Source: a virus
Taxonomy: Duplodnaviria; Heunggongvirae; Uroviricota; Caudoviricetes
Reading direction: 5' to 3' (one strand)
DNA: 43,781 nucleotides
Virus record (IMG/VR): IMGVR_UViG_2547132077_000004
Coordinates: 1 to 43,781 of that record
Positions within the stretch are counted from its first letter, which is position 1. Each line of letters opens with the position of its first letter. Positions 16,140 to 43,476 of this stretch are shown here, piece after piece. A model generated the notes under the pieces. It searched no databases. It was not told the origin of the DNA and was given only the letters and a program-made list of their open reading frames with translations. A program made the position numbers and the translations under genes.

Positions 16140-16300
16140 TCCGACATGAAAGTGCCCGAAAATGACTTTTTTAGGCGTTTTCATGTCGGACCTTTACGGA
16201 TTCGATATTAGAAAAAACAAATAGTTATGTTCGAGAAGTACCGACATGATTTTCCCCGGAAAATTTTCATAAATAGCGAAAACCCGCGAGGTCGCCGCCC
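16140..16300 (-). other. cos site: cosN cohesive-end sequence (16289-16300) and cosB-like terminase-binding repeats (about 16140-16200)
   Basis: Reverse complement of 16256-16300 reads GGGCGGCGACCTCGCGGGTTTTCGCTATTTATGAAAATTTTCCGG, the left end of lambda DNA including the 12-nt cohesive end; inverted CCGACATGAAA...TTTCATGTCGG repeats lie between it and the nu1 start. Confidence 0.8.
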
Positions 16301-17201: not shown

Positions 17202-17821
17202 ATCATAACGTCCGGTTTCTTCCGTGCCAGAACCGGACTCGCTGGCATGATGAAATATGTGTACCCGGTAACCCCGGTGTGCATCGTTTTTGATTATTCC
17301 CGCACACTCGCGCAGAAGGAGTTCCCCGTCGGGCTACGGTCTCTGTTAATACGGGAATACGGCGACGATACAGCGCATGATGTGTCAGGCTTGAATACCT
17401 TTATCCTTTAAAAGGGATATCAGTTAAGTTATCCCGTGTAGGGTATAAGCCATTATCAAAGCCACTCTGTAGGGAATGGCTTTTGTGATGGCATCACTTA
17501 CTCTTTACGCTGCTATCCCACTCATCCCGGAATTTTGATGGGTTATTGAAACCTTCTGCTGACATAACAACTCCTTCAATGTTTGGCTGAAATTAGGATG
17601 TCTTTCCATCAGTCCGCCACCACAAAGAATCTTTTTTGCCATAAGGCAGGAGGTTCATCTTTCAGTGGCTGCCGGTGTTATTTCCCCACTTACTGGCTTG
17701 GGTTGTTTCGTGGTACTGCCGTTAACTGGTGGCCCAGAATAAATTCCGGTTTCATTATCAAGCCCACCCGTAAATGGGCTTTGCAATGAAGAGCTGTTAT
17801 GAAAATTGCTCTAAACAAGCA

Positions 17822-18346
17822 TTAATAGCCATCAGAAGTAAGCGCTACAGATTTCAACCCCTCAATGTCATCCTTGGACAGGGCGAACCATTCACCGTGC
17901 TTTCTCTTTGCGGCAAATTTGCGATGAAGCATGTTTTCAGTTTCTCTTCCACCAGGGATCAGGCACTCAAGCTTCAAACAGTCTGGTCCAGAGTTGCCAA
18001 GCGATTTGATGCGTTGTGGAATGTTGGATGAATACCCAATTTTGGTTAGCCCAGTTTTCTTCGATGACAAAACGTATACCTGAGGAGGTTCTTTTCTCTG
18101 GTCTTCCATTACACGTCTCATTGTTGCCATAAGTCCGCCGTGCATCAGCATTTCAACAAAGAACGCTGACCGAACACCTGACGACTTAAGCATGCCAGAA
18201 AATTCACTTGCCAATTCCATTAACTCTGCGATGTTTTCAGGAACTTTTTGGCAGTTATCTTCCTTGTATAAGGAAATCATTCTTTGAAGCTTTTCTTCTA
18301 ATTGGTTCATAGCGTCTTTACCTTTTAGAAAGTGAGCCTGTCTCAC
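17822..18346 (-). CDS. T5orf172/GIY-YIG-like domain protein
   Basis: C-terminal half has VYVLSS..GLTKIGYSSN....R....E....GEWF, resembling the T5orf172 (GIY-YIG superfamily) signature; N-terminal 90 aa unassigned; start may be the internal Met at MNQLEEK. Confidence 0.5.
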   Translation of the reverse strand: MRQAHFLKGKDAMNQLEEKLQRMISLYKEDNCQKVPENIAELMELASEFSGMLKSSGVRSAFFVEMLMHGGLMATMRRVMEDQRKEPPQVYVLSSKKTGLTKIGYSSNIPQRIKSLGNSGPDCLKLECLIPGGRETENMLHRKFAAKRKHGEWFALSKDDIEGLKSVALTSDGY

Positions 18347-18519
18347 AGAAAAGCCGCCCGAGAGAGGTCGCCACCTATAACGGCAATTCTCAGGCCCGCT
18401 TACTGAAAGGCTCTCGTTAATATGCGCGTGAGATGCGCGTTTACTGCGGACATAAAAAAGCCCCGCTTCTGCGAGGCATTTTCCTGAAAGTCACTTGTTA
18501 AATTTCAGTGCAATTAAAA

Positions 18520-19860: not shown

Positions 19861-20616
19861 TTAAAACGTATCACGTGACATCATGTCTTTTTCTAAAAAA
19901 AATCTTGATGAATATTGATGGGGAGGAACACCAAAATATCTTCTGAAAACACTTACAAAATATGACGTATTTTCATAACCGCATATCTCAGCAACTTTTC
20001 CAACAGAATATAAATTGTAGCTTAATAACCTTTCCGCCATCACCATTCGCTCTTCAAGAATTAACTTACTAAATGATAAGCCTTCGTGCTTTAATTTTCT
20101 TTTTAACAGACTTTCACTCAGATACAGTCTTGAAGATATATCACAAAGTCTCCATGCTGCAGATATATCCGTGTGAATAATAGCCTTAACTTTACTTCCT
20201 AAACTATTAAGACATCCAAATAAAAAACTTTGCACTATTTTCTCTGAAGATAAGATAGCAAGACATGCAAGTGATATTTGATTTCTAACAAAATCCACAG
20301 TTCTGCCATCACAATTCAAGCATGCAATCAAGTTCTTTAACAATGAAAAATCTTCACATTCCACCATCAAGTATGCCGGATAAAACCTTCTTACAGAAAA
20401 AGGTGAGAGTGTGTTGCTTTTAAAGAAATCATTAACTGTTTTCTCTTCAACATCTACGATCATTACATGATCTATATTTGATGAAAAAAAATCTTTTAAA
20501 TTGTAATCAATGAGAACAGCACTTCCTTTTTTAAACAAAATATCTTCTTTACCAATTCGGGCATCAAACGAGTTCAACACCAAAATGATAGAACATATGT
20601 ATGGCATATTATCCAC
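19861..20616 (-). CDS. AraC/XylS-family transcriptional regulator
   Basis: 251 aa; C-terminal AraC-type double HTH (GKVAEICGYENTSYFVSVFRRYFGVPPHQY); strongly AT-rich. Confidence 0.75.
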   Translation of the reverse strand: MDNMPYICSIILVLNSFDARIGKEDILFKKGSAVLIDYNLKDFFSSNIDHVMIVDVEEKTVNDFFKSNTLSPFSVRRFYPAYLMVECEDFSLLKNLIACLNCDGRTVDFVRNQISLACLAILSSEKIVQSFLFGCLNSLGSKVKAIIHTDISAAWRLCDISSRLYLSESLLKRKLKHEGLSFSKLILEERMVMAERLLSYNLYSVGKVAEICGYENTSYFVSVFRRYFGVPPHQYSSRFFLEKDMMSRDTF

Positions 20617-20956
20617 CTGATATCATTGAGGTTACACCAGGTAAGTATAGGTGGAAAATCAATATTCGCCAGTTCAACAATAAGGAAAATCTCATTGCAT
20701 CACAAGTATAAAATTATGTATTTAACTCACAAAGACAAATTATTAAACCAATCTGTTATATTATATATAGCTGCGTGGAATCATAATATTATATTTTGAC
20801 TGGCATGTTTACCAACTTTAAGTTGCATCTCAATGGTTTCTTCAGCGTAAACAGAGTTTTTATACAAACTGACACTCTGGGTATCATAGTGTAGTTTTTA
20901 CGATTGTAAATATCCTGCATGCAGGAACTCATCCTTTTGGATGATATCGCATACAA

Positions 20957-21916
20957 TTAATTTACCATCAGTCTTAGAGCCAGTTCGTCCGGATAGGGAT
21001 CGAAGTAATTCTGTGTAAGCAAGTAATCATTAGGATACTCACCCAGATAATGCTTCAGCAGAGTCAACGGCGCAAGAAGAGGTAATGTGCCAGAACGATA
21101 GTTAAGTATAACCTCGCTCAACTCTTTACGCTGGCGTGTACTTAAGTAGTTACTAAAATACCCCTGTATATGCATCAGCACATTCGTGTGATTTTTACGT
21201 GATGCAGGTTTTCTGAGAATCGCCATCAGCTTATCACGATACACCTCAAAGTATGATTCAAGGTCCGCCCACTCGTGTATTGCAGCCACAAATGGTCCCA
21301 TATCTTTATAGCCTGCCTGACTATGCGCCAACAACTGAAGCTTATAACGACTATGAAAAGCTAATAACTCTCTTCTTGATAATTTCTCCTTGTAAAGGTG
21401 ATTGAGCTCATGCAAAGCAAAAACTCTTTCAACAAAATTCTCACGAAGCACTGGATCATGTAATCGCCCATCCTCTTCAACCGGTAGCCAGGAAAACTTT
21501 TCCATCAAAGTGCTCGTAAATAGTCCCACTCCATCTTTACGACCTCGATTACCATTTTCATCATAGACACGCACGCGCTCCATACCACAGCTGGGAGATT
21601 TAGCACAAACCACAAACCCCGATACATCCTTTAATTTGTCCATATAAGAACGACTAAACTCTGTCATTCTCTCTGTCACATCCTCATTCTGGTCGTGGCT
21701 GAAACACATCCGTATATTTCCTTGCGTCGAGCGCACAAGACGTAGAGCAGGACGCGGAACTGGCAGCCCTATAGCCATTTCTGGACATACTGGTCTGAAT
21801 GTTACCCATTCCACTAATTTGTCCATTAAAAAGTCAGCTCTTTTGTGACCACCATCAAAACGAACAGCAGAACCGGCCAAACAACCGCTGATTCCAATCA
21901 CAGGTTTTTTTATCAT
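20957..21916 (-). CDS. DUF523/DUF1722 two-domain protein (YbgA-like)
   Basis: 319 aa; N-terminal IGISGCLAG...CPE and C-terminal helical region as in the YbgA family. Family assignment from memory. Confidence 0.55.
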   Translation of the reverse strand: MIKKPVIGISGCLAGSAVRFDGGHKRADFLMDKLVEWVTFRPVCPEMAIGLPVPRPALRLVRSTQGNIRMCFSHDQNEDVTERMTEFSRSYMDKLKDVSGFVVCAKSPSCGMERVRVYDENGNRGRKDGVGLFTSTLMEKFSWLPVEEDGRLHDPVLRENFVERVFALHELNHLYKEKLSRRELLAFHSRYKLQLLAHSQAGYKDMGPFVAAIHEWADLESYFEVYRDKLMAILRKPASRKNHTNVLMHIQGYFSNYLSTRQRKELSEVILNYRSGTLPLLAPLTLLKHYLGEYPNDYLLTQNYFDPYPDELALRLMVN

Positions 21917-22108
21917 ATTCTCCCCCTTGACTAATTCATTAACACATAAACTGTGTAGTGCACGGAATAAATTGCCTTTCTGGCGTCATCACTGACAATT
22001 TTTCTGTTATGGACTATTCCTAATATAGTATGAAAGTTCTTTAAGTGAACGGTCGTAATCATCTATCTTTCATACTTACTCTCAACTATCAAAAGTACAG
22101 GATTTATT

Positions 22109-22633
22109 ATGAAGTTATGGCCTGTGTTGACTGGCATTGCACTCTCTTTCACTCTTATAGCATGTAAGGCCCCGACACCACCTAAAGGTGTGCAGCCGAT
22201 TACAAATTTTGACGCCAACCGCTACCTCGGAAAGTGGTATGAAATAGCTCGCCTCGAGAACCGGTTCGAACGTGGTCTGGAACAGGTCAGCGCTACTTAT
22301 GGAAAACGGAACGACGGAGGGATTCGTGTACTTAACCGTGGATACGATCCAACGAAAAATAAATGGAGCGAGAGCGAAGGTAAAGCATACTTTACTGGAG
22401 ATACTAAAACTGCAGCGTTGAAGGTTTCGTTTTTTGGCCCCTTCTATGGTGGCTATAATGTAATCAAACTGGATGATGAGTATAAGTATGCTCTTGTCAG
22501 TGGTCCGAACAGAGAATATCTATGGATTCTGGCAAGGACCCCAACTATTCCAGATAAAGTAAAAGCAGACTATGTGCGAACCGCTCAAAAGTTGGGATTC
22601 AATGTCAATGAATTATTATGGGTTAAACAATAA
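22109..22633 (+). CDS. blc: Outer-membrane lipocalin (Blc-like lipoprotein)
   Basis: 174 aa; signal peptide with lipobox (LIAC); NFDANRYLGKWYEIARLENRFERGLE and KVSFFGPFYGGYNVI match the bacterial lipocalin Blc signature closely. Confidence 0.85.
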   Translation: MKLWPVLTGIALSFTLIACKAPTPPKGVQPITNFDANRYLGKWYEIARLENRFERGLEQVSATYGKRNDGGIRVLNRGYDPTKNKWSESEGKAYFTGDTKTAALKVSFFGPFYGGYNVIKLDDEYKYALVSGPNREYLWILARTPTIPDKVKADYVRTAQKLGFNVNELLWVKQ

Positions 22634-22787: not shown

Positions 22788-23180
22788 TTATTTCGAACAA
22801 TCAGTATCCATCTCCAATCGGAGATCCAACACCATCAGCATACCCTCCACTACGCCCTCAGCTTTCTGGAGCATCCTGCCAACCCAACAATCAGATCGCC
22901 CATGCTTACGTGCAAGCGCCATAAAAGTCATGCCGCCGACATAATAGTCCACCAATAAATCATGCAAATCGCTGTTGTTCTTTTTCAGACGGGCCATGCA
23001 CCCGCAAATGATCATCGCGTCATCGTCACAACATTGTGGGCGAGATTTTACTTTTGAAGGAATTAATCCCTTAAAACCGGCGGCAATGGACGACCAGGTC
23101 ACATCTTCATGATTATTAGCCGCCCACGCTCCCCAACGCTCAAGAACCATCTGAATATCACGCATCAACTTACTCCACAA
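22788..23180 (-). CDS. Late-gene antiterminator Q (DLP12/phage-82 QuuD type)
   Basis: About 125-130 aa with Cys cluster ([13 protein letters not shown]) typical of short Q proteins; downstream of rusA as in DLP12; start may be the internal MRDIQMV. Confidence 0.7.
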
Positions 23181-26095: not shown

Positions 26096-27622
26096 TCAAA
26101 AATAAACCTCACCATCAACCATATATTTGAGAGTACTTATCGCCTGCTGGGCGGATATTGTTTTCATTAAAGGATAGTGTTTAAAAACAATGCCATTCAT
26201 AAAATAGATATCACAGGTTTTATTATCTGTATTGATTATGATTTTTTCGAATGTTTTATAGGCAAGTGTACGACATAGCTCTCGCCCATTTTTACTGGTT
26301 AAGTCAATAGCATGAAAATCACCAAGTGAACTCACCGCTTTACTCTTCAAAGTTTTTAATGATACAGAAGCCCTTCGTAATTCCTTATCTAATACTCTGA
26401 TTTTTTCTGCTATAGCGGTAACTTCAGGCGCAACAGATAATGCAGCAATTAAATTATTAATTTTCATCTGGAGCTCAATAATTTTCAACTCTAAAGTTTC
26501 ATTAGCATCTTTCTTGTTTTCAACTGGTTGGATTTTACTACAATTAAAAAGCAACTCATTAATGATATTATAATCAACCAAATCTCTCTTTATTGATGGC
26601 CTGTCACATCGATGCAGTCTTCTCATCGGACAAACATAATAGCCATACAAACTTCCAGATACCGCATGAACAATCATGGTATTACCACAAGCCTCGCACT
26701 TCATAACTGTTCGAAGTAGATTTATCAACATAGGATTTTTGCTACTATTGCTAATACCAAAAGGTGCCAACCGAATTTCCTGTACAGCGTAAAACAAATC
26801 ATCTGATATGACTCTGGGATAATAGCCAGCGATTTCACTTATTCCTTTACCTCTTGCACGATATGAAGGTACGCATATACCTATCAGAGCTTTATTCGCT
26901 AATAATTTTTCAATTACAGAAGGTCCCCATGCACTTTCTTTTCCTGAGAAATTCTTTACAGCATGATCATTTAAATACTTGGCTATTGCATTCAATGAGC
27001 GCCTTTCCATCCTGAGTTTAAAAATTAGCTCAATAGTTTTCACCCTGTCGGGGTCTGGAACAAAAGCCGTTCTTTTGTCATCTAAGGAGAGCCATCTCGG
27101 ACAAGACGCCGTCATAATCGTACCTGATTCCAGTGCATCCTGCCGTTTTTTCTTCCATGATAATTTAACCCGACTTGACTTTATCTCGCTTTCTTCATTT
27201 GCCCTTTGTGCTATAAGTATGGCTTTTATTAATGAATATGGCTCATTCAAAGAGTCAATATTATAGACTGTATTGTCGCAAAGAGTTATAACATCAATAC
27301 CGTGATTCAAAATCAATTTCAGACGTTCAATCGCTTCACCGACTTTTTCTCTTGAAAGTCTGTCCAGACTTTCAACTAACAATGTAGTTCCTGGCAATAT
27401 ATAACCATGCTCTATAGCATCTAAAAATTCCGAAAAAGCTCCTGATTGTGCATGCTTTCCTTTGAATGCACTTAATCCTAAATCTTCATATGTTATGGTA
27501 TCAAGATAATAATCACTATTTACCTTTAACCATTCAGCAATAAGTCTTCTCTGTCGGTTTAATGAGTCGCCAGACATCTGACCTGGTGATGAAAATCGCA
27601 TATATGCTATGGCTTTTTTCAT
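26096..27622 (-). CDS. Large serine recombinase (YbcK-like)
   Basis: 508 aa; N-terminal resolvase catalytic domain (IAYMRFSSPGQ, nucleophile Ser), recombinase domain, Cys-rich zinc-ribbon (CEACGN...C..C) and C-terminal coiled coil; AT-rich. Confidence 0.8.
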   Translation of the reverse strand: MKKAIAYMRFSSPGQMSGDSLNRQRRLIAEWLKVNSDYYLDTITYEDLGLSAFKGKHAQSGAFSEFLDAIEHGYILPGTTLLVESLDRLSREKVGEAIERLKLILNHGIDVITLCDNTVYNIDSLNEPYSLIKAILIAQRANEESEIKSSRVKLSWKKKRQDALESGTIMTASCPRWLSLDDKRTAFVPDPDRVKTIELIFKLRMERRSLNAIAKYLNDHAVKNFSGKESAWGPSVIEKLLANKALIGICVPSYRARGKGISEIAGYYPRVISDDLFYAVQEIRLAPFGISNSSKNPMLINLLRTVMKCEACGNTMIVHAVSGSLYGYYVCPMRRLHRCDRPSIKRDLVDYNIINELLFNCSKIQPVENKKDANETLELKIIELQMKINNLIAALSVAPEVTAIAEKIRVLDKELRRASVSLKTLKSKAVSSLGDFHAIDLTSKNGRELCRTLAYKTFEKIIINTDNKTCDIYFMNGIVFKHYPLMKTISAQQAISTLKYMVDGEVYF

Positions 27623-29279: not shown

Positions 29280-30295
29280 AAATCCACCCCGTAAATCCAG
29301 TCAGTGTTTGTCAGGTCGAGTTTTGGTTTGCTGGCTATCATGCCTGCCTGTTGCTTGTTACGGTTGATTTCGAGTTGGGTCCACTTGTCGCGGAGTTTGG
29401 CCGGACTTAGCACGTTACCGGACCAGAAGTTGTCCTGGCATGCCCAGCGGAAAAGCACGCACATGTCGCGGTGGTTACGTCCGTCACGTTCACGCATCAG
29501 GCGGATATCGTTAGCCCACCCTGCAAAATTCGGTTTTCTGGCTGATGGTGCGATGGTCTTCACCATGTCAAACATCCACTCTGCGGCGGTCAGGTCTTCT
29601 GCTGTCCCCCACTTGCTGCCGCTCTGAATTGCAGCATCTGGTTTCACCACAGGAAGATCGTTTTCTGGTTGGTCAGAGGATTCGCCAGAATTCTCGGACG
29701 AAAAAGGTTTTATATTGTCTTTTGTTAGTTTGTCTTTTGTGTTTACCTGATTCGGGTAAACGCCTTTACCTGATTTGGGTAAACTTTTCTTACCTGATTC
29801 AGGTAAATTTACCTCTTTCAGGTAAACTTTATTTTTCTTACCTGATTCGGGTAATGTTGACCATTCACTGACCACATTATTAATACCGATATTCCGCCCG
29901 CTCTGAATCAAAATCCCACGCTTTACTAGAACACTTTTTGCAGCAGAACACTTGTGCGGTAATATCCCGGTCAATCCGGACAGTTGCTCGTTGCTCACCC
30001 AATCCAGTTTTTTATTAAAGCCATATGTTTTGCGCATGACAGCCAGGAAGACCAGAAGCTGGTGCTGTGTTAATCCGGCCAGCATCACAGCTTCCAGCAA
30101 CTCATTTGCAATGCGCGTATAACCATCATCGAGATCTGCCACGCGCGGCTCCTTTTGTGCCGCATCCGGCACTGGAAAATTGAATATCTCAGCAGTGTTT
30201 GCCATAATTCCTCCCGCAATGAGTGTGTTACGATTTGCACCTGAAAGTCGGTTCTGTTCCAGCAGACCGGCTTTCGCCATTTCTGAACCTGTCAT
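29276..30295 (-). CDS. O: Replication initiator O with ori iterons inside the coding sequence
   Basis: 339 aa; central LPESGKK repeats encoded by the iterons; C-terminal domain lambda-O-like; gene order cro/cII-position/O/P. Confidence 0.8.
   Translation of the reverse strand: MTGSEMAKAGLLEQNRLSGANRNTLIAGGIMANTAEIFNFPVPDAAQKEPRVADLDDGYTRIANELLEAVMLAGLTQHQLLVFLAVMRKTYGFNKKLDWVSNEQLSGLTGILPHKCSAAKSVLVKRGILIQSGRNIGINNVVSEWSTLPESGKKNKVYLKEVNLPESGKKSLPKSGKGVYPNQVNTKDKLTKDNIKPFSSENSGESSDQPENDLPVVKPDAAIQSGSKWGTAEDLTAAEWMFDMVKTIAPSARKPNFAGWANDIRLMRERDGRNHRDMCVLFRWACQDNFWSGNVLSPAKLRDKWTQLEINRNKQQAGMIASKPKLDLTNTDWIYGVDL
29744..29854. repeat. Replication origin iterons (4-5 copies of TTACCTGATTCGGGTAA-like 17-mers) with an adjacent AT-rich tract (29701-29743)
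   Basis: Direct repeats at about 29744, 29766, 29790, 29808 (variant) and 29838 inside O, the lambda ori architecture. Confidence 0.75.
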
Positions 30296-30831
30296 ATCGC
30301 CCCCAGCATGGTAGTAACCATCGCCATCAATGGACCAGCCAGATCTGGGTCCACACGAAACATCGATACAATACCTTCACTAATTTCCTTCAGTTTCTGG
30401 TGGCGTGGTGCGTTGAGAATGACAGCCTGTTTTGCCTCACTGAGTTCCTTTTCCATTTCAGCCAACCTGGCCATGAAGCTATCCTGCTCAACCAGGTAAC
30501 CGCGATATTCCAGCGGTAGTACCGCCAGAATTGCCGGGGTCAGTTCACGCACGTTATTTCGGTATTTTTCAGAATCGAATTTGTTATCGAGGAAGCGGAA
30601 CAGCTTCTGGCGTGCACGGCTGACATCATCAGGGAAATCGATGGTGCCGCCGCCCTGCTCCCGATACTCATTCACAATGAGTGTGGCAACGACATCCTGA
30701 TTATCTACAGCCGACCAGGCGCGGACGGCATCACGGATTTTTTCGTGGCCTGGCACCTGTTTTGTTTGAGAACGATTTATCACCGCAGTCGGGCTAAATC
30801 CGCTAGTCTGTTGGTATGGAAGTGGTTGCAT
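30292..30831 (-). CDS. Early protein at the cII position, unknown family (not lambda cII)
   Basis: 179 aa between cro-like and O; far longer than the 97-aa lambda cII and no resemblance to it. Confidence 0.4.
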   Translation of the reverse strand: MQPLPYQQTSGFSPTAVINRSQTKQVPGHEKIRDAVRAWSAVDNQDVVATLIVNEYREQGGGTIDFPDDVSRARQKLFRFLDNKFDSEKYRNNVRELTPAILAVLPLEYRGYLVEQDSFMARLAEMEKELSEAKQAVILNAPRHQKLKEISEGIVSMFRVDPDLAGPLMAMVTTMLGAI

Positions 30832-34719: not shown

Positions 34720-35964
34720 ATGAACGAGGCAGCAATAATTATTGTCCCAACAGACATCAGCAAGAAAATTCGCGAAATAGAAGAGTCCTACAACAGATAT
34801 ATAAATGAATTTCGCATCCCTAATGATCATAAGATAATCGTGAATTATTCAGCAGGAAAAGACAGCACTGCCACACTCGCAGTGGCGCACACATTATTCG
34901 GCAAACAGGTACATGCTGTTATGGCAGACACGGATAATGAGCATAATCTAACTGTCGAATTCGCCAGGAGCATTCATGAGCAGATCGGTTGTAGCCCTGT
35001 GCAGGTTGTGAAGCGGATTTACACTGAAGAAGATTTTGCCAAACGACGAATTTATCTGCAAAAAAACTGGTCTAAACGACAGATGATCCGCATGGGAGCA
35101 TACCGTGGCATAGTCATGCCTTCCCTCGCACGTTCTGACACCAAATTCGGGCAAGCCTGGAAGCGCACAGCAGAACGCTGGGGAATTGAGTTCGAAACTG
35201 CTCTTGATGCTGCGCTTTCCGTTATGCACCCATCCGGTAATAGCTTTTTGGATTGCTCCCTTCTGCATGGCAAGTTCCCTATGCTGCGCGACCGATTCTG
35301 TACAGACGAACTGAAAATTCAGATAGCTTTCGACGCAGCCATAAAGCCGCTCCTTGATGCTGGCGATGTTATCGTACAATGGTCTGGTGTTCGCGCGGAT
35401 GAGTCCTCTAAGCGCGCTGGATATGAGAGGTTTTCCCGCGATATGCGCGACGCCGATTTTCTCTACAACTTCCTGCCGCTCCACAAATGGACGGCTGAGG
35501 ACGTATTCGCAGTTCACAAATATTTCGGAATTAAGCCAAATCCACTTTATATGCAAGGTGCGTCTCGTGTTGGCTGCATGAATTGCGTGCTATGCAACAA
35601 AGAGGAAATTGCAGAGACGGCTGCGCGCTGGCCAGAGCACATCAAAAAGCACAAACAATGGGAGTTGAAGGTACGCCTTGCTAGTAGATGGGTACACTGG
35701 ATGAGCGTAGGAGAGATAAGCCAACGCTGGATGAAACAGTTCAATCTGCCACTTGGTCGAAATATTCAACTTTTTGGGCTAAAACCTGATGTGCAACACA
35801 TCGACTGGTCAGGATTTTATGGTCCTCGTGGAGATCTTAATTCTCCGGGTGTTTATGAAGTCGTAGAGTGGGCAAAAACAGGGCGCGGTGGCAAGGTCTA
35901 CGATCTTGTAAAAGCAAGTCTCGATATAGAGGTTTGCTCTTCACGCTACGGTCTGTGCGAATAA
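34720..35964 (+). CDS. PAPS-reductase-like (PP-loop ATP-pyrophosphatase superfamily) protein with Cys-rich C-terminal extension
   Basis: 414 aa; PP-loop motif (IIVNYSAGKDSTATLAVAH) near the N-terminus; C-terminal CMNCVLC cluster; same strand as the early-left operon. Confidence 0.65.
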   Translation: MNEAAIIIVPTDISKKIREIEESYNRYINEFRIPNDHKIIVNYSAGKDSTATLAVAHTLFGKQVHAVMADTDNEHNLTVEFARSIHEQIGCSPVQVVKRIYTEEDFAKRRIYLQKNWSKRQMIRMGAYRGIVMPSLARSDTKFGQAWKRTAERWGIEFETALDAALSVMHPSGNSFLDCSLLHGKFPMLRDRFCTDELKIQIAFDAAIKPLLDAGDVIVQWSGVRADESSKRAGYERFSRDMRDADFLYNFLPLHKWTAEDVFAVHKYFGIKPNPLYMQGASRVGCMNCVLCNKEEIAETAARWPEHIKKHKQWELKVRLASRWVHWMSVGEISQRWMKQFNLPLGRNIQLFGLKPDVQHIDWSGFYGPRGDLNSPGVYEVVEWAKTGRGGKVYDLVKASLDIEVCSSRYGLCE

Positions 35965-38066: not shown

Positions 38067-38482
38067 GGCCTGCCAGCTTCTCAAGATATCCAGACCTACA
38101 GCAATCATGTCAATCCAATAAATGGAGACTCCAAGTGGAAGAAGAAATCTTCACTCGTGAAGAGGCTGCGTCGTATCTGAAGGTAGACAAAGGCACTATC
38201 ACGCAGTGGATACGAAGTGGACGACTTCAAGCCGCAAAGATAAATCCAGATAAACCTAAAAGCCCATATCGCATTTGCAAGTCAGACTGCATTGCGGCGC
38301 TTAAGTCTGTGAGACACAATAGCGCGGTGAATGCGGTTGATGTGCAGGAGGTTAAAGCATGTCAATCAAACTGCGCGGTGGCACATGGCACTGCGATTTC
38401 GTCGCGCCAGATGGATCAAGAGTTAGACGCTCTCTTGAAACATCGGACAAGAGGCAAGCGCAAGAACTTCACGATCGTCTGA
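38063..38482 (+). CDS. xis: Excisionase/AlpA-like HTH protein (start uncertain; overlaps int)
   Basis: HTH segment FTREEAASYLKVDKGTITQWIRSGRL immediately upstream of int; the ORF overlaps int by 124 nt in another frame, so the true start, or an alternative start codon, is unresolved. Confidence 0.5.
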   Translation: MRPASFSRYPDLQQSCQSNKWRLQVEEEIFTREEAASYLKVDKGTITQWIRSGRLQAAKINPDKPKSPYRICKSDCIAALKSVRHNSAVNAVDVQEVKACQSNCAVAHGTAISSRQMDQELDALLKHRTRGKRKNFTIV

Positions 38483-39519
38483 AAGCAGAAGCGTGGAGAG
38501 TAAAAAATCTCGGTGAATCACCGAAAAAGCTATTCAAGGAAGCCTGCATACGGTGGCTGCGAGAGAAAGCGGATAAGAAGTCCATTGATGATGACAAGAG
38601 CATTATATCGTTCTGGATGTTGCACTTCAGAGAAACCATTCTCTCTGACATAACAACAGAAAAAATAATGGAGGCGGTAGACGGGATGGAAAACCGCCGC
38701 CATCGCCTGAACTGGGAGATGAGCCGGGATAGGTGTTTGCGGCTTGGCAAGCCAGTGCCGGAGTATAAACCAAAGCTGGCAAGCAAAGGAACGAAGACGC
38801 GGCATCTGGCAATACTTCGCGCTATTCTCAATATGGCTGTTGAATGGGGATGGCTTGACAGGGCGCCCAAAATATCAACACCACGCGTTAAGAATGGACG
38901 AATCAGATGGCTTACAGAGGAGGAATCGAAGCGCCTGTTTGCAGAAATTGCTCCTCATTTCTTCCCTGTGGTCATGTTTGCAATCACGACAGGCCTTCGT
39001 CGTTCCAACGTTACAGACCTTGAGTGGTCACAGGTCGATCTGGATAAGAAAATGGCATGGATGCACCCTGATGAAACAAAAGCTGGCAATGCGATCGGAG
39101 TTCCTCTTAACGAAACCGCATGCCAGATATTAAGAAAACAGCAGGGGCTCCATAAGAGATGGGTATTTGTCCACACCAAACCTGCCTACCGAAGCGACGG
39201 AACAAAAACAGCAGCGGTAAGGAAGATGAGAACCGACAGCAACAAGGCATGGAAGGGAGCGTTAAAGCGGGCAGGCATTAGCAACTTCCGCTTCCATGAC
39301 CTGAGGCATACCTGGGCAAGCTGGCTGGTTCAGTCCGGTGTCTCTCTTCTTGCACTTAAAGAGATGGGAGGATGGGAAACTCTCGAAATGGTTCAAAGAT
39401 ACGCCCACCTTTCAGCCGGGCATCTCACCGAGCACGCGAGCAAAATCGATGCGATTATAAGTCGCAATGGCACAAATACGGCACAAGAGGAGAACGTAGT
39501 TTACTTAAATGCGAGGTAA
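38359..39519 (+). CDS. int: Tyrosine integrase
   Basis: 386 aa; C-terminal catalytic signature (HDLRHTWASWLVQSGVSLLALKEMGGWETLEMVQRYAHL) with R..HxxR..Y; ends 15 bp from the att core. Confidence 0.9.
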   Translation: MSIKLRGGTWHCDFVAPDGSRVRRSLETSDKRQAQELHDRLKAEAWRVKNLGESPKKLFKEACIRWLREKADKKSIDDDKSIISFWMLHFRETILSDITTEKIMEAVDGMENRRHRLNWEMSRDRCLRLGKPVPEYKPKLASKGTKTRHLAILRAILNMAVEWGWLDRAPKISTPRVKNGRIRWLTEEESKRLFAEIAPHFFPVVMFAITTGLRRSNVTDLEWSQVDLDKKMAWMHPDETKAGNAIGVPLNETACQILRKQQGLHKRWVFVHTKPAYRSDGTKTAAVRKMRTDSNKAWKGALKRAGISNFRFHDLRHTWASWLVQSGVSLLALKEMGGWETLEMVQRYAHLSAGHLTEHASKIDAIISRNGTNTAQEENVVYLNAR

Positions 39520-41586: not shown

Positions 41587-43476
41587 ATGAAATCCGAAAC
41601 GCTAACCATCCAGCAACTTTTCCAAAATCAACGACAATATCGTGTTCCATTCTATCAACGTGCCTACGTATGGACGCAACAAAACCAATGGTCAGCTTTG
41701 CTGGAGGATATCTTCGAAAAAGCACATAGCCGACTTTTGGGAACAAAACCAACTCCCCATTTCCTTGGCGCGGTGGTGCTGGAACCTCAACTCAAAAACA
41801 GCTTGTTAGGTGTAGATACCATACATATTATTGACGGCCAGCAACGTTTAACCACTCTTCAATATATTCTGGCATCCATTCGATTATCATTGCGTGCTAC
41901 AGGCCTTTCTGATTTGGAAGGGTTAGTATTGACTTGCTTGAAAAATACAAACGAAGCAACTATGCGAAATAAAAAGGTAGAATGCTTCAAACTGTGGCCA
42001 ACTTTTCGAGACCAAACTCATTTTATTCAAAGTTTTAATGTTGAAAACATTGACGATCTCCGTGATGTATTTTCTGATAGCTTCACGCAACATGGTACGT
42101 TACGTAAACATTTCAACCACCCGCCGTCACTAGAGGCATTATGGTTTTTTACTGAAGCCTTTATAAAATGGATTAAAATAGAAAAGTACTCACCACATGA
42201 AAATGCTGTAGCACTAATTGAGGCTGTCTTGACGGATCTGAAACTGGTAAGCATATTTCTCGAAGCTGAAGATGATGCCCAAATAATTTTTGAAACATTA
42301 AATGGCCGAGGGGCGGAACTTCATGCCACGGATCTTATTCGCAACTACATCTTTATGTGCGCTGAGCATGAAAATATTAATGCTATTGAATTATATGAAA
42401 ATGAATGGAAGAGCTTTGAAGATACATACTGGTCGGAAAGGCAACGCCGTGGACGTATTAATAAACCACGCATGGAGTGGCTAGTGCATGCGACATTGCA
42501 ATCAGAAAGGCAACGTGAAATTGATCTGTCTCGTCTTTACAATGAGTATCGTGATTATGTAAGTAAGGACTTGCCTTCACAACGAGCTGATCTGCAAGTA
42601 AAGCGCCTCAAACAATATGCATCACAATATAAAGAATTAGTTGGTGGTTTTGGCACAACCCCCATCTCACACTTTGGACATCGCATCGCAGCCTATGATG
42701 TGACGACACTTTATCCGCTTGCTTTGTTCATTTCGATAGCTAATATCGCCGATGATGAGAAAGCAGCCATGTATAATGATCTTGTCTCCTACGTAGTACG
42801 AAGAGCCGTATGTGGCCTGACGCCAAAGAATTACAACAATGTATTTATGAATGTATTGCGGCACTTGTCTAAAACGGAAATTTCCAGTGTTGAGTTACGT
42901 AATATCCTCAATAGCTTAAATGGCGAAGCCTCACGTTGGCCTGGTGACTCAGAATTTCTCAATGCTTGCATCAATGCTCCACTTTATCCTGGCAGGCTCG
43001 ACGCACCGAAAATGCGCTCAATGTTAACGGAACTTGAAAGAGAACTTTGTCGCCAAGTGAAGACAGAGAAGCCTGATGTTCCAAATCTTTCCAATCTCGA
43101 TATCGATCATCTTATGCCTCAAAGTTGGTATTCCTGTTGGCCTCTCGAAAATGGTCATATGGTGACAAATTCAGATGCAACGGTATTGAACCAAATTGTT
43201 CTGTCTGGAACAGATCTTACCCCTGAGCAGCTACTGGTAAGGAAACGGCAACAAGCGATAGCTACGTTGGGAAATCTAACTTTGCTTAACCTTAGCGTAA
43301 ACCGTTCTGTTCAGAATGCTGTATTTCTGAAAAAACGTGATGCTCTCATCGTCCACACCAATCTACGACTGAACATACCACTTATACTTAAGGATAAATG
43401 GGATGAGGGTGAAATCCTGAAGCGGGGTAAAAAGTTGGGGGAAATTGCATTGAAAGTATGGCCAAAACACGATTAA
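41587..43476 (+). CDS. DUF262 (ParB-like NTPase) + DUF1524 (His-Me finger nuclease) protein, GmrSD-family type IV restriction enzyme-like
   Basis: 629 aa; N-terminal YRVPFYQRAYVWT and IIDGQQRLTTLQ (DUF262 DGQQR motif); C-terminal LDIDHLMPQSW ... LGNLTLLNLSVNRSVQN (DUF1524-like). Confidence 0.75.
   Translation: MKSETLTIQQLFQNQRQYRVPFYQRAYVWTQQNQWSALLEDIFEKAHSRLLGTKPTPHFLGAVVLEPQLKNSLLGVDTIHIIDGQQRLTTLQYILASIRLSLRATGLSDLEGLVLTCLKNTNEATMRNKKVECFKLWPTFRDQTHFIQSFNVENIDDLRDVFSDSFTQHGTLRKHFNHPPSLEALWFFTEAFIKWIKIEKYSPHENAVALIEAVLTDLKLVSIFLEAEDDAQIIFETLNGRGAELHATDLIRNYIFMCAEHENINAIELYENEWKSFEDTYWSERQRRGRINKPRMEWLVHATLQSERQREIDLSRLYNEYRDYVSKDLPSQRADLQVKRLKQYASQYKELVGGFGTTPISHFGHRIAAYDVTTLYPLALFISIANIADDEKAAMYNDLVSYVVRRAVCGLTPKNYNNVFMNVLRHLSKTEISSVELRNILNSLNGEASRWPGDSEFLNACINAPLYPGRLDAPKMRSMLTELERELCRQVKTEKPDVPNLSNLDIDHLMPQSWYSCWPLENGHMVTNSDATVLNQIVLSGTDLTPEQLLVRKRQQAIATLGNLTLLNLSVNRSVQNAVFLKKRDALIVHTNLRLNIPLILKDKWDEGEILKRGKKLGEIALKVWPKHD

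Follow-up and report, generated by a model that had tools for sequence, protein, structure and literature searches.

The gene and its product

The window analyzed here is a stretch of 43,781 nucleotides (nt), IMG/VR record IMGVR_UViG_2547132077_000004, from a tailed phage (Caudoviricetes). It carries on its minus strand, between the lysis cassette and the packaging genes, a gene for a protein of the GIY-YIG/T5orf172 family, which is the subject of this work. An earlier note, made from the letters alone, had described at this place a 174-amino acid (aa) minus-strand open reading frame (ORF) with a C-terminal GIY-YIG-like motif of the T5orf172 type, and had assigned it to the position of the lambda gene bor. 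The open frame exists, at 17822..18346, and counts 174 aa from a GTG; its start was refined as described below. The identity of the gene and its position are near certain. Its main features, including its coding sequence (CDS), are as follows.

17822..18310, minus strand: CDS, GIY-YIG/T5orf172 family protein, orthologue of HK106 gp64; 162 aa plus stop (MNQLEEKL...SDGY)
18095..18310, minus strand: N-terminal domain, aa 1-72, predicted three-helix bundle, homologue of HkbL
17846..18082, minus strand: C-terminal T5orf172/MUG113 domain, aa 77-155, GIY-YIG-like fold
18311..18346, minus strand: in-frame upstream extension to the GTG, part of the shared leader and probably untranslated

The ATG at 18310, which gives a product of 162 aa, is most likely the true start, because the RefSeq CDS is 489 nt in both HK106 and E. 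coli, because homology with phages carrying other cassettes breaks 4 nt inside the CDS, and because distant homologues preceded by unrelated DNA begin at the equivalent residue. Over the 36 nt from GTG to ATG, homology with HK620 (hkbK, KilA-N) and phiv205-1 (rha) continues throughout, and the 12 extra codons would be leader common to all cassettes. Some annotators place the start of Rha at this same GTG, which counts toward the longer alternative.

The gene is already known from annotation. The protein is 98.8–99.4% identical to HK106 gp64 (YP_007151734), also of 162 aa and located in the same slot after Rz and a terminator, and RefSeq lists the same gene as 'GIY-YIG nuclease family protein' (WP_214139379 / WP_016245257). 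The full length of the protein matched phrog_4284 (PHROGs; E 3.7e-91), a family to which no function is assigned, and an NCBIfam search with it returned no match. The gene had also been deleted in a published construct, considered below.

The C-terminal domain

The C-terminal part of the protein scored far above the Pfam cutoffs for MUG113 (PF13455; 55.7 bits versus a cutoff of 22.3, E 7e-15) and T5orf172 (PF10544; 40.8 bits versus 20, E 3e-10), and the motifs quoted in the earlier note were all present (QVYVL..(11)..KIGYS..QRIK..ETENMLHRKF..HGEWF). The match to the generic Pfam GIY-YIG model was marginal and below threshold (E 0.18). A model of the nuclease domain predicted a beta-beta-alpha-beta-alpha core, as in GIY-YIG nucleases. 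The GIY-YIG-like fold anticipated by the note was borne out by the best matches of this model in the Protein Data Bank (PDB), all of which were GIY-YIG nucleases, with the following figures.

I-TevI catalytic domain: 5.7 (best)
SLX1 / HIGLE: 5.4-5.6
UPF0213: 5.4
AtGRXS16: 5.0
PD-T4-3: 4.9
UvrC: 4.4
EndoII: 4.0
Eco29kI: 3.9

Among predicted viral structures, the top matches were all T5orf172, MUG113, GIY-YIG or baculovirus BRO proteins, and a sequence-profile search against PDB sequences yielded chance-level matches only.

Residues Y79, K90-I91-G92, R100, E125, H129 and E140-W141-F142 were invariant in 37 homologues reaching down to about 30% identity. Y79, within VYVL, is the first tyrosine of the GIY-YIG motif, and K90-I-G follows at the correct 11-residue spacing from Tyr to Lys; R100 and E125 stand at the spacing expected for the catalytic Arg and Glu, and the Asn position is occupied by E140. 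We take the corresponding I-TevI residues to be Y6, Y17 (here Lys), R27, E75 and N90 (here Glu), a mapping made by motif spacing (Y-11-K-10-R...E-15-E) and not by residue-level structural superposition. I-TevI, SLX1, the N-domain of UvrC, Eco29kI and EndoII thus have in common with this protein the predicted core and a Tyr, an Arg and a Glu at the expected spacings.

The T5orf172 nucleases of vibriophage ICP1, among them putative homing endonucleases (Barth et al. 2023, PMC10448857) and Odn, have the same Pfam domain, with the catalytic Arg and Glu kept there as here; for Odn, nuclease activity has been proven and requires the equivalent Glu (PMC8263062). The ICP1 genes and the gene in the window are alike phage-encoded and dispensable, and both are found close to genes for packaging or structural proteins and at the limits of exchanged DNA. 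Unlike the ICP1 type, the protein has neither a zinc-finger (CapR/DUF723/DUF4397) nor a RepA_N domain and bears an HkbL-like helical domain instead; furthermore, its similarity to the ICP1 proteins lies below tblastn detection, the phage carrying it is temperate, and its activity would be assigned by analogy.

The N-terminal domain

The earlier note had left the N-terminal domain unassigned. The domain indeed had no match in Pfam, but it can be assigned as a homologue of HkbL (phrog_875). A custom hidden Markov model (HMM) of the domain matched HK620 HkbL with 49 bits over positions 4-72, HkbL matched phrog_4284 over positions 14-84 (E 4.3e-6), and pairwise BLASTP between the domain and HkbL was weak (E 0.057). 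Judged by these profile matches, the domain is homologous to HkbL. Its isoelectric point is slightly acidic (5.3), in contrast to 9.4 for the nuclease domain.

HkbL has 85 aa, and its gene lies in the same slot of HK620 directly after the KilA-N gene hkbK, overlapping the hkbK stop; the homologous residues 1-72 are fused N-terminally here, whereas HkbL is free-standing. Proteins like HkbL (phrog_875) are common in enterobacterial prophages, including HK97p61, as free-standing products of about 85 aa, and a search with HkbL returned only such free-standing proteins. The N-domain profile, run against an index of 5.8 billion proteins, revealed no new architectures, all its matches being truncated versions of this same protein. 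The two-domain protein appears to be an evolutionary fusion of an HkbL-like helical domain with a nuclease domain.

The slot

The gene lies between the lysis cassette and cos, as the earlier note had it, with Rz upstream and cos downstream. The neighbouring genes and the elements that flank the gene are listed below.

19687-19472, minus strand: holin, upstream of the gene
19472-18975, minus strand: endolysin, upstream of the gene
18990-18520, minus strand: Rz/Rz1, upstream of the gene
18460..18477, minus strand: intrinsic terminator directly after Rz (hairpin plus T-run; terminator scan)
18311..18459, minus strand: leader of ca. 150 nt with Shine-Dalgarno AAAAGG (alignment)
17753..17781, minus strand: hairpin AAGCCCAUU/GGUGGGCUU followed by GAUAAUG, ca. 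40 nt past the stop codon and without a T-run
17400..17798, minus strand: conserved non-coding downstream flank, ending in a second hairpin plus UGAUAAUG at ca. 17451-17486
16113-15568, minus strand: Nu1, beyond cos, with terminase A next

An exact 45-nt match at 16256-16300 (minus strand; none expected by chance) to what we take to be the left end of lambda (cosN and flank) probably represents lambda cos, where the interval from the lysis to the packaging genes ends. On the opposite strand, the stretch from the gene to cos holds ylcI (DUF3950) and ybcV (DUF1398), both of DLP12 type. As the note had stated, no ORF for a Bor-like lipoprotein was found between Rz and cos, and the hydrophilic N-terminus of the protein (MNQLEEKLQRM) has neither a signal peptide nor a lipobox; in Pfam the protein matched no model other than MUG113, T5orf172 and GIY-YIG. 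Alignment with the bor-carrying DLP12 of K-12 was restricted to DNA outside the Rz-to-cos stretch.

The bor position named in the note was upheld as an interval and not beyond it. Lambda Bor, DLP12 borD and Iss come from the same Rz-to-cos interval, with no sequence, domain or topological similarity to the protein. Lambda Bor is an outer-membrane lipoprotein encoded on the opposite strand, with its own promoter, and is expressed in lysogens; the protein studied here, by contrast, is cytoplasmic, its gene is co-oriented with the late operon and no promoter was found for it. Because the gene is co-oriented with the late operon and follows a terminator and a leader common to rha and kilA-N genes, its position seems better named the classical rha slot of phi80, P22 and HK620, the likeness to bor being a positional analogy only.

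A rho-independent terminator is annotated at the same place in HK106 and HK544, and the leader is kept whichever cassette follows, be it T5orf172, KilA-N or Rha. The Rha genes (phi80 rha, P22 orf201) and KilA-N genes (HK620 hkbK, HK544 gp62) have an identical terminator, ca. 150-nt leader, Shine-Dalgarno sequence and start codon, with protein domains that are of DNA-binding or antirepressor type and unrelated to the protein; BLASTP of the protein against the HK544 KilA-N protein found no similarity. At a coverage of at least 80%, the leader occurs in 625 E. coli genomes, mostly ahead of Rha, and it is Rha that stands under this leader in DH10B, which presumably carries phi80 DNA. The annotated slot genes were counted at 47 evenly spread leader-bearing places in E. 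coli, with this outcome.

Rha: 35 of 47 (~74%)
KilA-N: 3 of 47 (~6%)
GIY-YIG: 8 of 47
Truncated GIY-YIG: 1 of 47

Every slot with the same flanks that did not hold the T5orf172 gene was filled by Rha or KilA-N. The limits of the cassette are those of the CDS: phages with a KilA-N or Rha allele are homologous to the window up to the ATG and again from 24 nt past the stop (at 17798, HK544). The gene would thus be one of three interchangeable cassettes (T5orf172, Rha and KilA-N) that end the lysis cassette. PMC4936722 describes the rha gene of phi80 and P22 as part of the late operon, under the control of IHF and harmful to the phage in IHF mutants.

The downstream flank is 97% identical to that of HK544, is partly common to HK620, HK106 and P22-like prophages, and folds more stably than shuffled sequence (z -3.3). 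The hairpin at 17753..17781 lies inside it, ca. 17-45 nt past the cassette-specific 24 nt that end at 17798. Rfam returned nothing at gathering thresholds across the whole window and chance-level matches only near the gene. A DLP12-type prophage of E. coli E2 has no slot gene; its Rz ends differently, the leader is missing, and the Rz terminator runs straight into the second of the two elements made of a hairpin plus TGATAATG. In the window, the conserved flank of 330 nt is enclosed by two such hairpins, similar to each other and each with (U)GAUAAUG after it, and their counterpart in E2 lies at ca. 2150-2200 of its stretch, which suggests that the paired hairpins mark module joints.

Some further details of the flanks were recorded. 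A direct repeat, ACGCGCAT, occurs twice inside the leader. A segment of 129 nt in the downstream flank (17468-17596) is present in the window and HK544 and not in HK106, HK620, phiv205-1 or a P22-like E. coli prophage, and contains part of a non-conserved 45-aa ORF (17505-17642, minus strand). Two candidate elements in the leader were rejected: a helix pairing GCCUUU with the Shine-Dalgarno AAAAGG was unsupported (z -0.92, a single compensatory pair), and a cosN-like sequence, AGGTGGCGACCT, at 18365-18376 (minus strand), which agrees with lambda cosN GGGCGGCGACCT at 10 of 12 positions, is put down to chance, shuffled sequence giving 2.6 such matches per window.

Replacement of the HK106 orthologue

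Gene gp64 spans positions 1215-1703 of the HK106 stretch. Primers HK106-orf64-3m/-5m, given in the supplement of a published study of an HK106 chimera, contain CACTTTCTAAAAGGTAAAGACGCTATG and TGCTTGTTTAGAGCAATTTTCATAAC; their matches in the HK106 stretch fall at 1701-1727, ending on the gp64 start codon, and at 1189-1214, beginning right after the stop, and the same primer sequences match the window at 18308-18334 and 17796-17821. These positions are flush with start and stop, and therefore gp64, the orthologue of the gene in the window, was precisely deleted in the chimera, strain JP24743. AtiEcA placed in this HK106 slot works during infection and the phage still plaques, expression in this region being ascribed by the authors to Q antitermination (PMC11364771). 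The gene is thus non-essential for phage growth, as shown for the HK106 orthologue. According to the same study, the phi80 defence gene Tai and its counter-defence gene Ati also occupy this hotspot, which precedes the packaging genes (PMC11364771).

Distribution and conservation

The CDS was found in 82 of 5426 complete E. coli genomes, in about 13% of slots and sporadically; 80 copies were full length and 78 had at least 99% identity. The earlier note had considered that the ORF might be a fusion artefact of two small genes. Among the 30 of 82 copies listed, one carried a 1-nt insertion and one was truncated, the rest being annotated as intact, and the two-domain architecture was kept at 35-99% identity in E. 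coli, Salmonella, Klebsiella and metagenomic homologues, which speaks against such an artefact. The ratio of nonsynonymous to synonymous substitution rates (dN/dS) between E. coli copies was 0.13-0.4, a weak estimate from only 1-5 differences. An exhaustive HMM search recovered 38,245 proteins with the C-terminal domain, and about 15 clusters (50% identity) also matched the N-domain. HK106 is HK97-like and other carriers are P22-like, whereas the window carries a prophage of the lambda type (cos/Nu1-A) with DLP12-like ylcI and ybcV.

A 49%-identical homologue in an unrelated prophage follows holin, endolysin and spanin genes and precedes the terminase. Two homologues of 33% identity belong to P22-like genomes, Epsilon34 gp68 near the end of its record (41.3 of 43.0 kb) and g341c gp64 near the end of its genome. 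A homologue of 38% identity lies on a 27.5-kb contig among co-oriented uncharacterized genes, most of them without a Pfam match.

Many of the carriers are decaying prophages in which the T5orf172 CDS is nonetheless intact. E. coli 1506 and E2 have DLP12-type prophages that are otherwise nearly identical. In the prophage of E. coli 1506, IS1 stands between ybcV and the T5orf172 gene (2086-2783 of its stretch), and in that of E. coli E2, nohD abuts a truncated tail-fibre gene (1-301 of its stretch). NZ_OY754386.1, an E. coli record of 42,747 bp that is classed as a plasmid, has one copy of the gene (17762-18245); the record may be a phage genome that is extrachromosomal or was assembled as a circle.

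Function of the gene

We tentatively propose that the gene encodes a non-essential late endonuclease used in conflict between mobile elements, or in homing-like spread. This reading is quite possible without being probable, a caution that applies to the mechanism and not to the identity of the gene or its position. With no promoter of its own and behind the Rz terminator, the protein would be made only late, by Q-modified polymerase reading through the late operon; late-only expression is proposed because of the missing promoter and the terminator upstream, on the strength of the sequence and of published work on slot genes. The protein would be an active Mg-dependent endonuclease, as residue conservation suggests, and would be dispensable for growth of the phage, as was the HK106 orthologue. 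Its cleavage target would be DNA other than its own packaged genome, most plausibly that of co-resident related phages, prophages or satellites, on the analogy of the free-standing T5orf172 nucleases of ICP1, and targeting or control would come from the helical N-domain, which is not a DNA-binding domain.

Several lines of evidence argue for a late endonuclease of this kind. The putative catalytic set is invariant in the 37 distant homologues and has a precedent in Odn. The position on the late strand, the upstream terminator, the rha leader and the working of AtiEcA in the HK106 slot are consistent with late expression. Selection is indicated by most copies being intact and by a low dN/dS, calculated on few differences. 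The 49%-identical homologue lies between spanin and terminase genes, the 33%-identical Epsilon34 gp68 near the end of a P22-like record, and the phi80 defence pair occupies the same hotspot. In other phages, T5orf172 genes cluster near terminase genes and exchange boundaries (PMC10448857).

Other observations weigh against it. For this family no report of a nuclease activity, target or phenotype was found. The second GIY-YIG Tyr is a Lys and the Asn position a Glu, as is typical of T5orf172, for which the InterPro-derived name is 'DNA-binding'. Of the T5orf172 homing-type genes studied, 87% have zinc-finger DNA-binding domains, and CapR is a domesticated, regulatory T5orf172 protein (PMC10448857); here no DNA-binding domain was found, and a fold search with the N-domain gave generic helical-bundle matches only. 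The ICP1 proteins were not detected as relatives (tblastn, E 1e-3), so that the analogy stands at the level of the Pfam family only. The other occupants of the slot, Rha and KilA-N, are DNA-binding proteins, not nucleases. The uniformity of the CDS across phage backgrounds, considered as a sign of homing, was rejected as such, the Rha cassette being equally uniform (228 of 249 copies at 99% identity or more).

That the protein is instead a DNA-binding late regulator, antirepressor-like and non-catalytic or weakly catalytic, seems unlikely but deserves the most weight among the alternatives. It would then be the equivalent of Rha and of KilA-N with HkbL, T5orf172 serving as the binding head and the HkbL-like domain as a shared partner module. 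The leader and start codon common to the three cassettes point this way, as do the homology of the N-domain to a protein whose gene overlaps the stop of hkbK, the 'DNA-binding' name of T5orf172, the fold shared with baculovirus BRO proteins and the domestication of CapR as a repressor. However, all residues expected for GIY-YIG catalysis are invariant in distant homologues, which DNA binding alone would not require, and the protein has no helix-turn-helix or zinc finger.

A narrower version of the late endonuclease, and an improbable one in our judgement, is a classical free-standing homing endonuclease that would cut lambdoid phages with the Rha or KilA-N allele, in the slot or in a gene beside it, and be copied in by repair through the conserved flanks. 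The gene-exact limits of the cassette, with breaks at the ATG and 24 nt past the stop, would fit this, and so would the sporadic occurrence of a dispensable gene. The CDS is 99.2–99.8% identical at the nucleotide level across HK97-like, P22-like and lambda-like (DLP12-type) backgrounds, with more divergence in the leader (85-98%) and Rz (89-98%), and T5orf172 genes near terminase genes elsewhere have been proposed as homing endonucleases (PMC10448857). The Rha cassette, however, is not a nuclease gene and has the same limits and uniformity. Moreover, the protein has no detected DNA-binding or target-recognition domain; an empty allele between the same flanks was not encountered, the sole empty variant being that of E2 with its different Rz end; and the position is kept down to 49% identity, which suggests long residence rather than recent invasion.

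A wider conjecture, which we likewise hold to be improbable, is that the HkbL-like module serves the rha slot as a general adaptor, through which exchangeable DNA-acting heads (KilA-N in trans, T5orf172 in cis) would all reach a single target, either a protein or a complex of DNA and protein. The T5orf172 form would then be a late protein-guided endonuclease that destroys or gene-converts competing lambdoid phages, prophages and satellites in the same cell.

It is very unlikely that the gene is a moron expressed in the lysogen, replacing Bor as a fitness factor, for example as an anti-phage defence nuclease of the prophage. It does share the interval of lambda bor and a hotspot that holds phi80 defence genes, and GIY-YIG nucleases act in defence (SNIPE, PMC13190303; the PD-T4-3 structure). 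A PADLOC check gave a weak match to the candidate system PDC-S57 (E 7e-6), but this covered the nuclease domain only, and no partner genes of a defence system were present. A promoter scan found no sigma-70-like promoter on the strand of the gene between Rz and the ATG; a strong terminator lies directly upstream, the gene is co-oriented with the late operon, and a protein with neither signal peptide nor lipobox is not Bor-like. The lambdoid moron of Juhala et al. 2000 reportedly has its own promoter and terminator and is expressed from the prophage; here a terminator takes the place of the promoter upstream, and the hairpin past the stop has no T-run.

There is an equally slight chance that the protein is a useful, non-essential helper in the late DNA transactions of its own phage (breakdown of host DNA for nucleotides, resolution of branched concatemers, assistance to the terminase): the gene directly precedes packaging genes in every context seen, structure-specific nucleases of the SLX1 type are among the best fold matches and, in HK97-like phages, a neighbouring HNH nuclease assists the terminase, but the gene occurs with three unrelated packaging systems (cos/Nu1-A, P22-type headful and HK97 HNH-dependent cos), most relatives within each packaging type lack it, and no defect was reported for the HK106 replacement.

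Other features of the prophage

Cargo genes occupy 19861-22633, between the Q antiterminator (22788-23180, minus strand) and the holin, where Stx phages carry their toxin genes.

19861-20616, minus strand: AraC-family regulator
20957-21916, minus strand: DUF523/DUF1722 protein of the '2-thiouracil desulfurase' type
22109-22633, plus strand: lipocalin

A large serine recombinase (Resolvase, Recombinase and Zn_ribbon_recom domains; 26096-27622, minus strand) is encoded within the nin/replication region, and the prophage has a tyrosine integrase as well (38359-39519); the serine recombinase may represent either an insertion or a further integration system. Just past the integrase end there is a GmrSD-type restriction endonuclease (type IV, modification-dependent; 41587-43476, plus strand). 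A PAPS-reductase-domain protein (34720-35964, plus strand) adjoins the RecT/YqaJ recombination genes, and a protein of the YdaT toxin family (30292-30831, minus strand) adjoins replication gene O.

Significance

In the database entries and literature examined, we did not find stated the HkbL homology of the N-domain, the standing of the gene as a third allele of the rha/kilA-N slot, or the link between the HK106 chimera and this gene. These findings will not surprise a specialist, and their value lies in what lambdoid genetics makes testable. Until now, T5orf172 nucleases have been linked chiefly with lytic phages (ICP1, T5-like) and with defence systems. The present gene sits in genetically tractable lambdoid phages, in a slot whose Rha and KilA-N occupants are also poorly understood, and the viable HK106 replacement makes both nuclease activity and a bias of inheritance, or harm to competitors, directly testable. 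Were neither borne out, the gene would be one more dispensable accessory gene. Were the protein an active nuclease that biases inheritance or harms competitors, it would provide a mechanism for cassette turnover at a classic mosaic junction of lambdoid phages; and the adaptor conjecture, if true, would mean that a nuclease contributes to driving lambdoid mosaicism in temperate coliphages, as has been proposed in parallel for ICP1.

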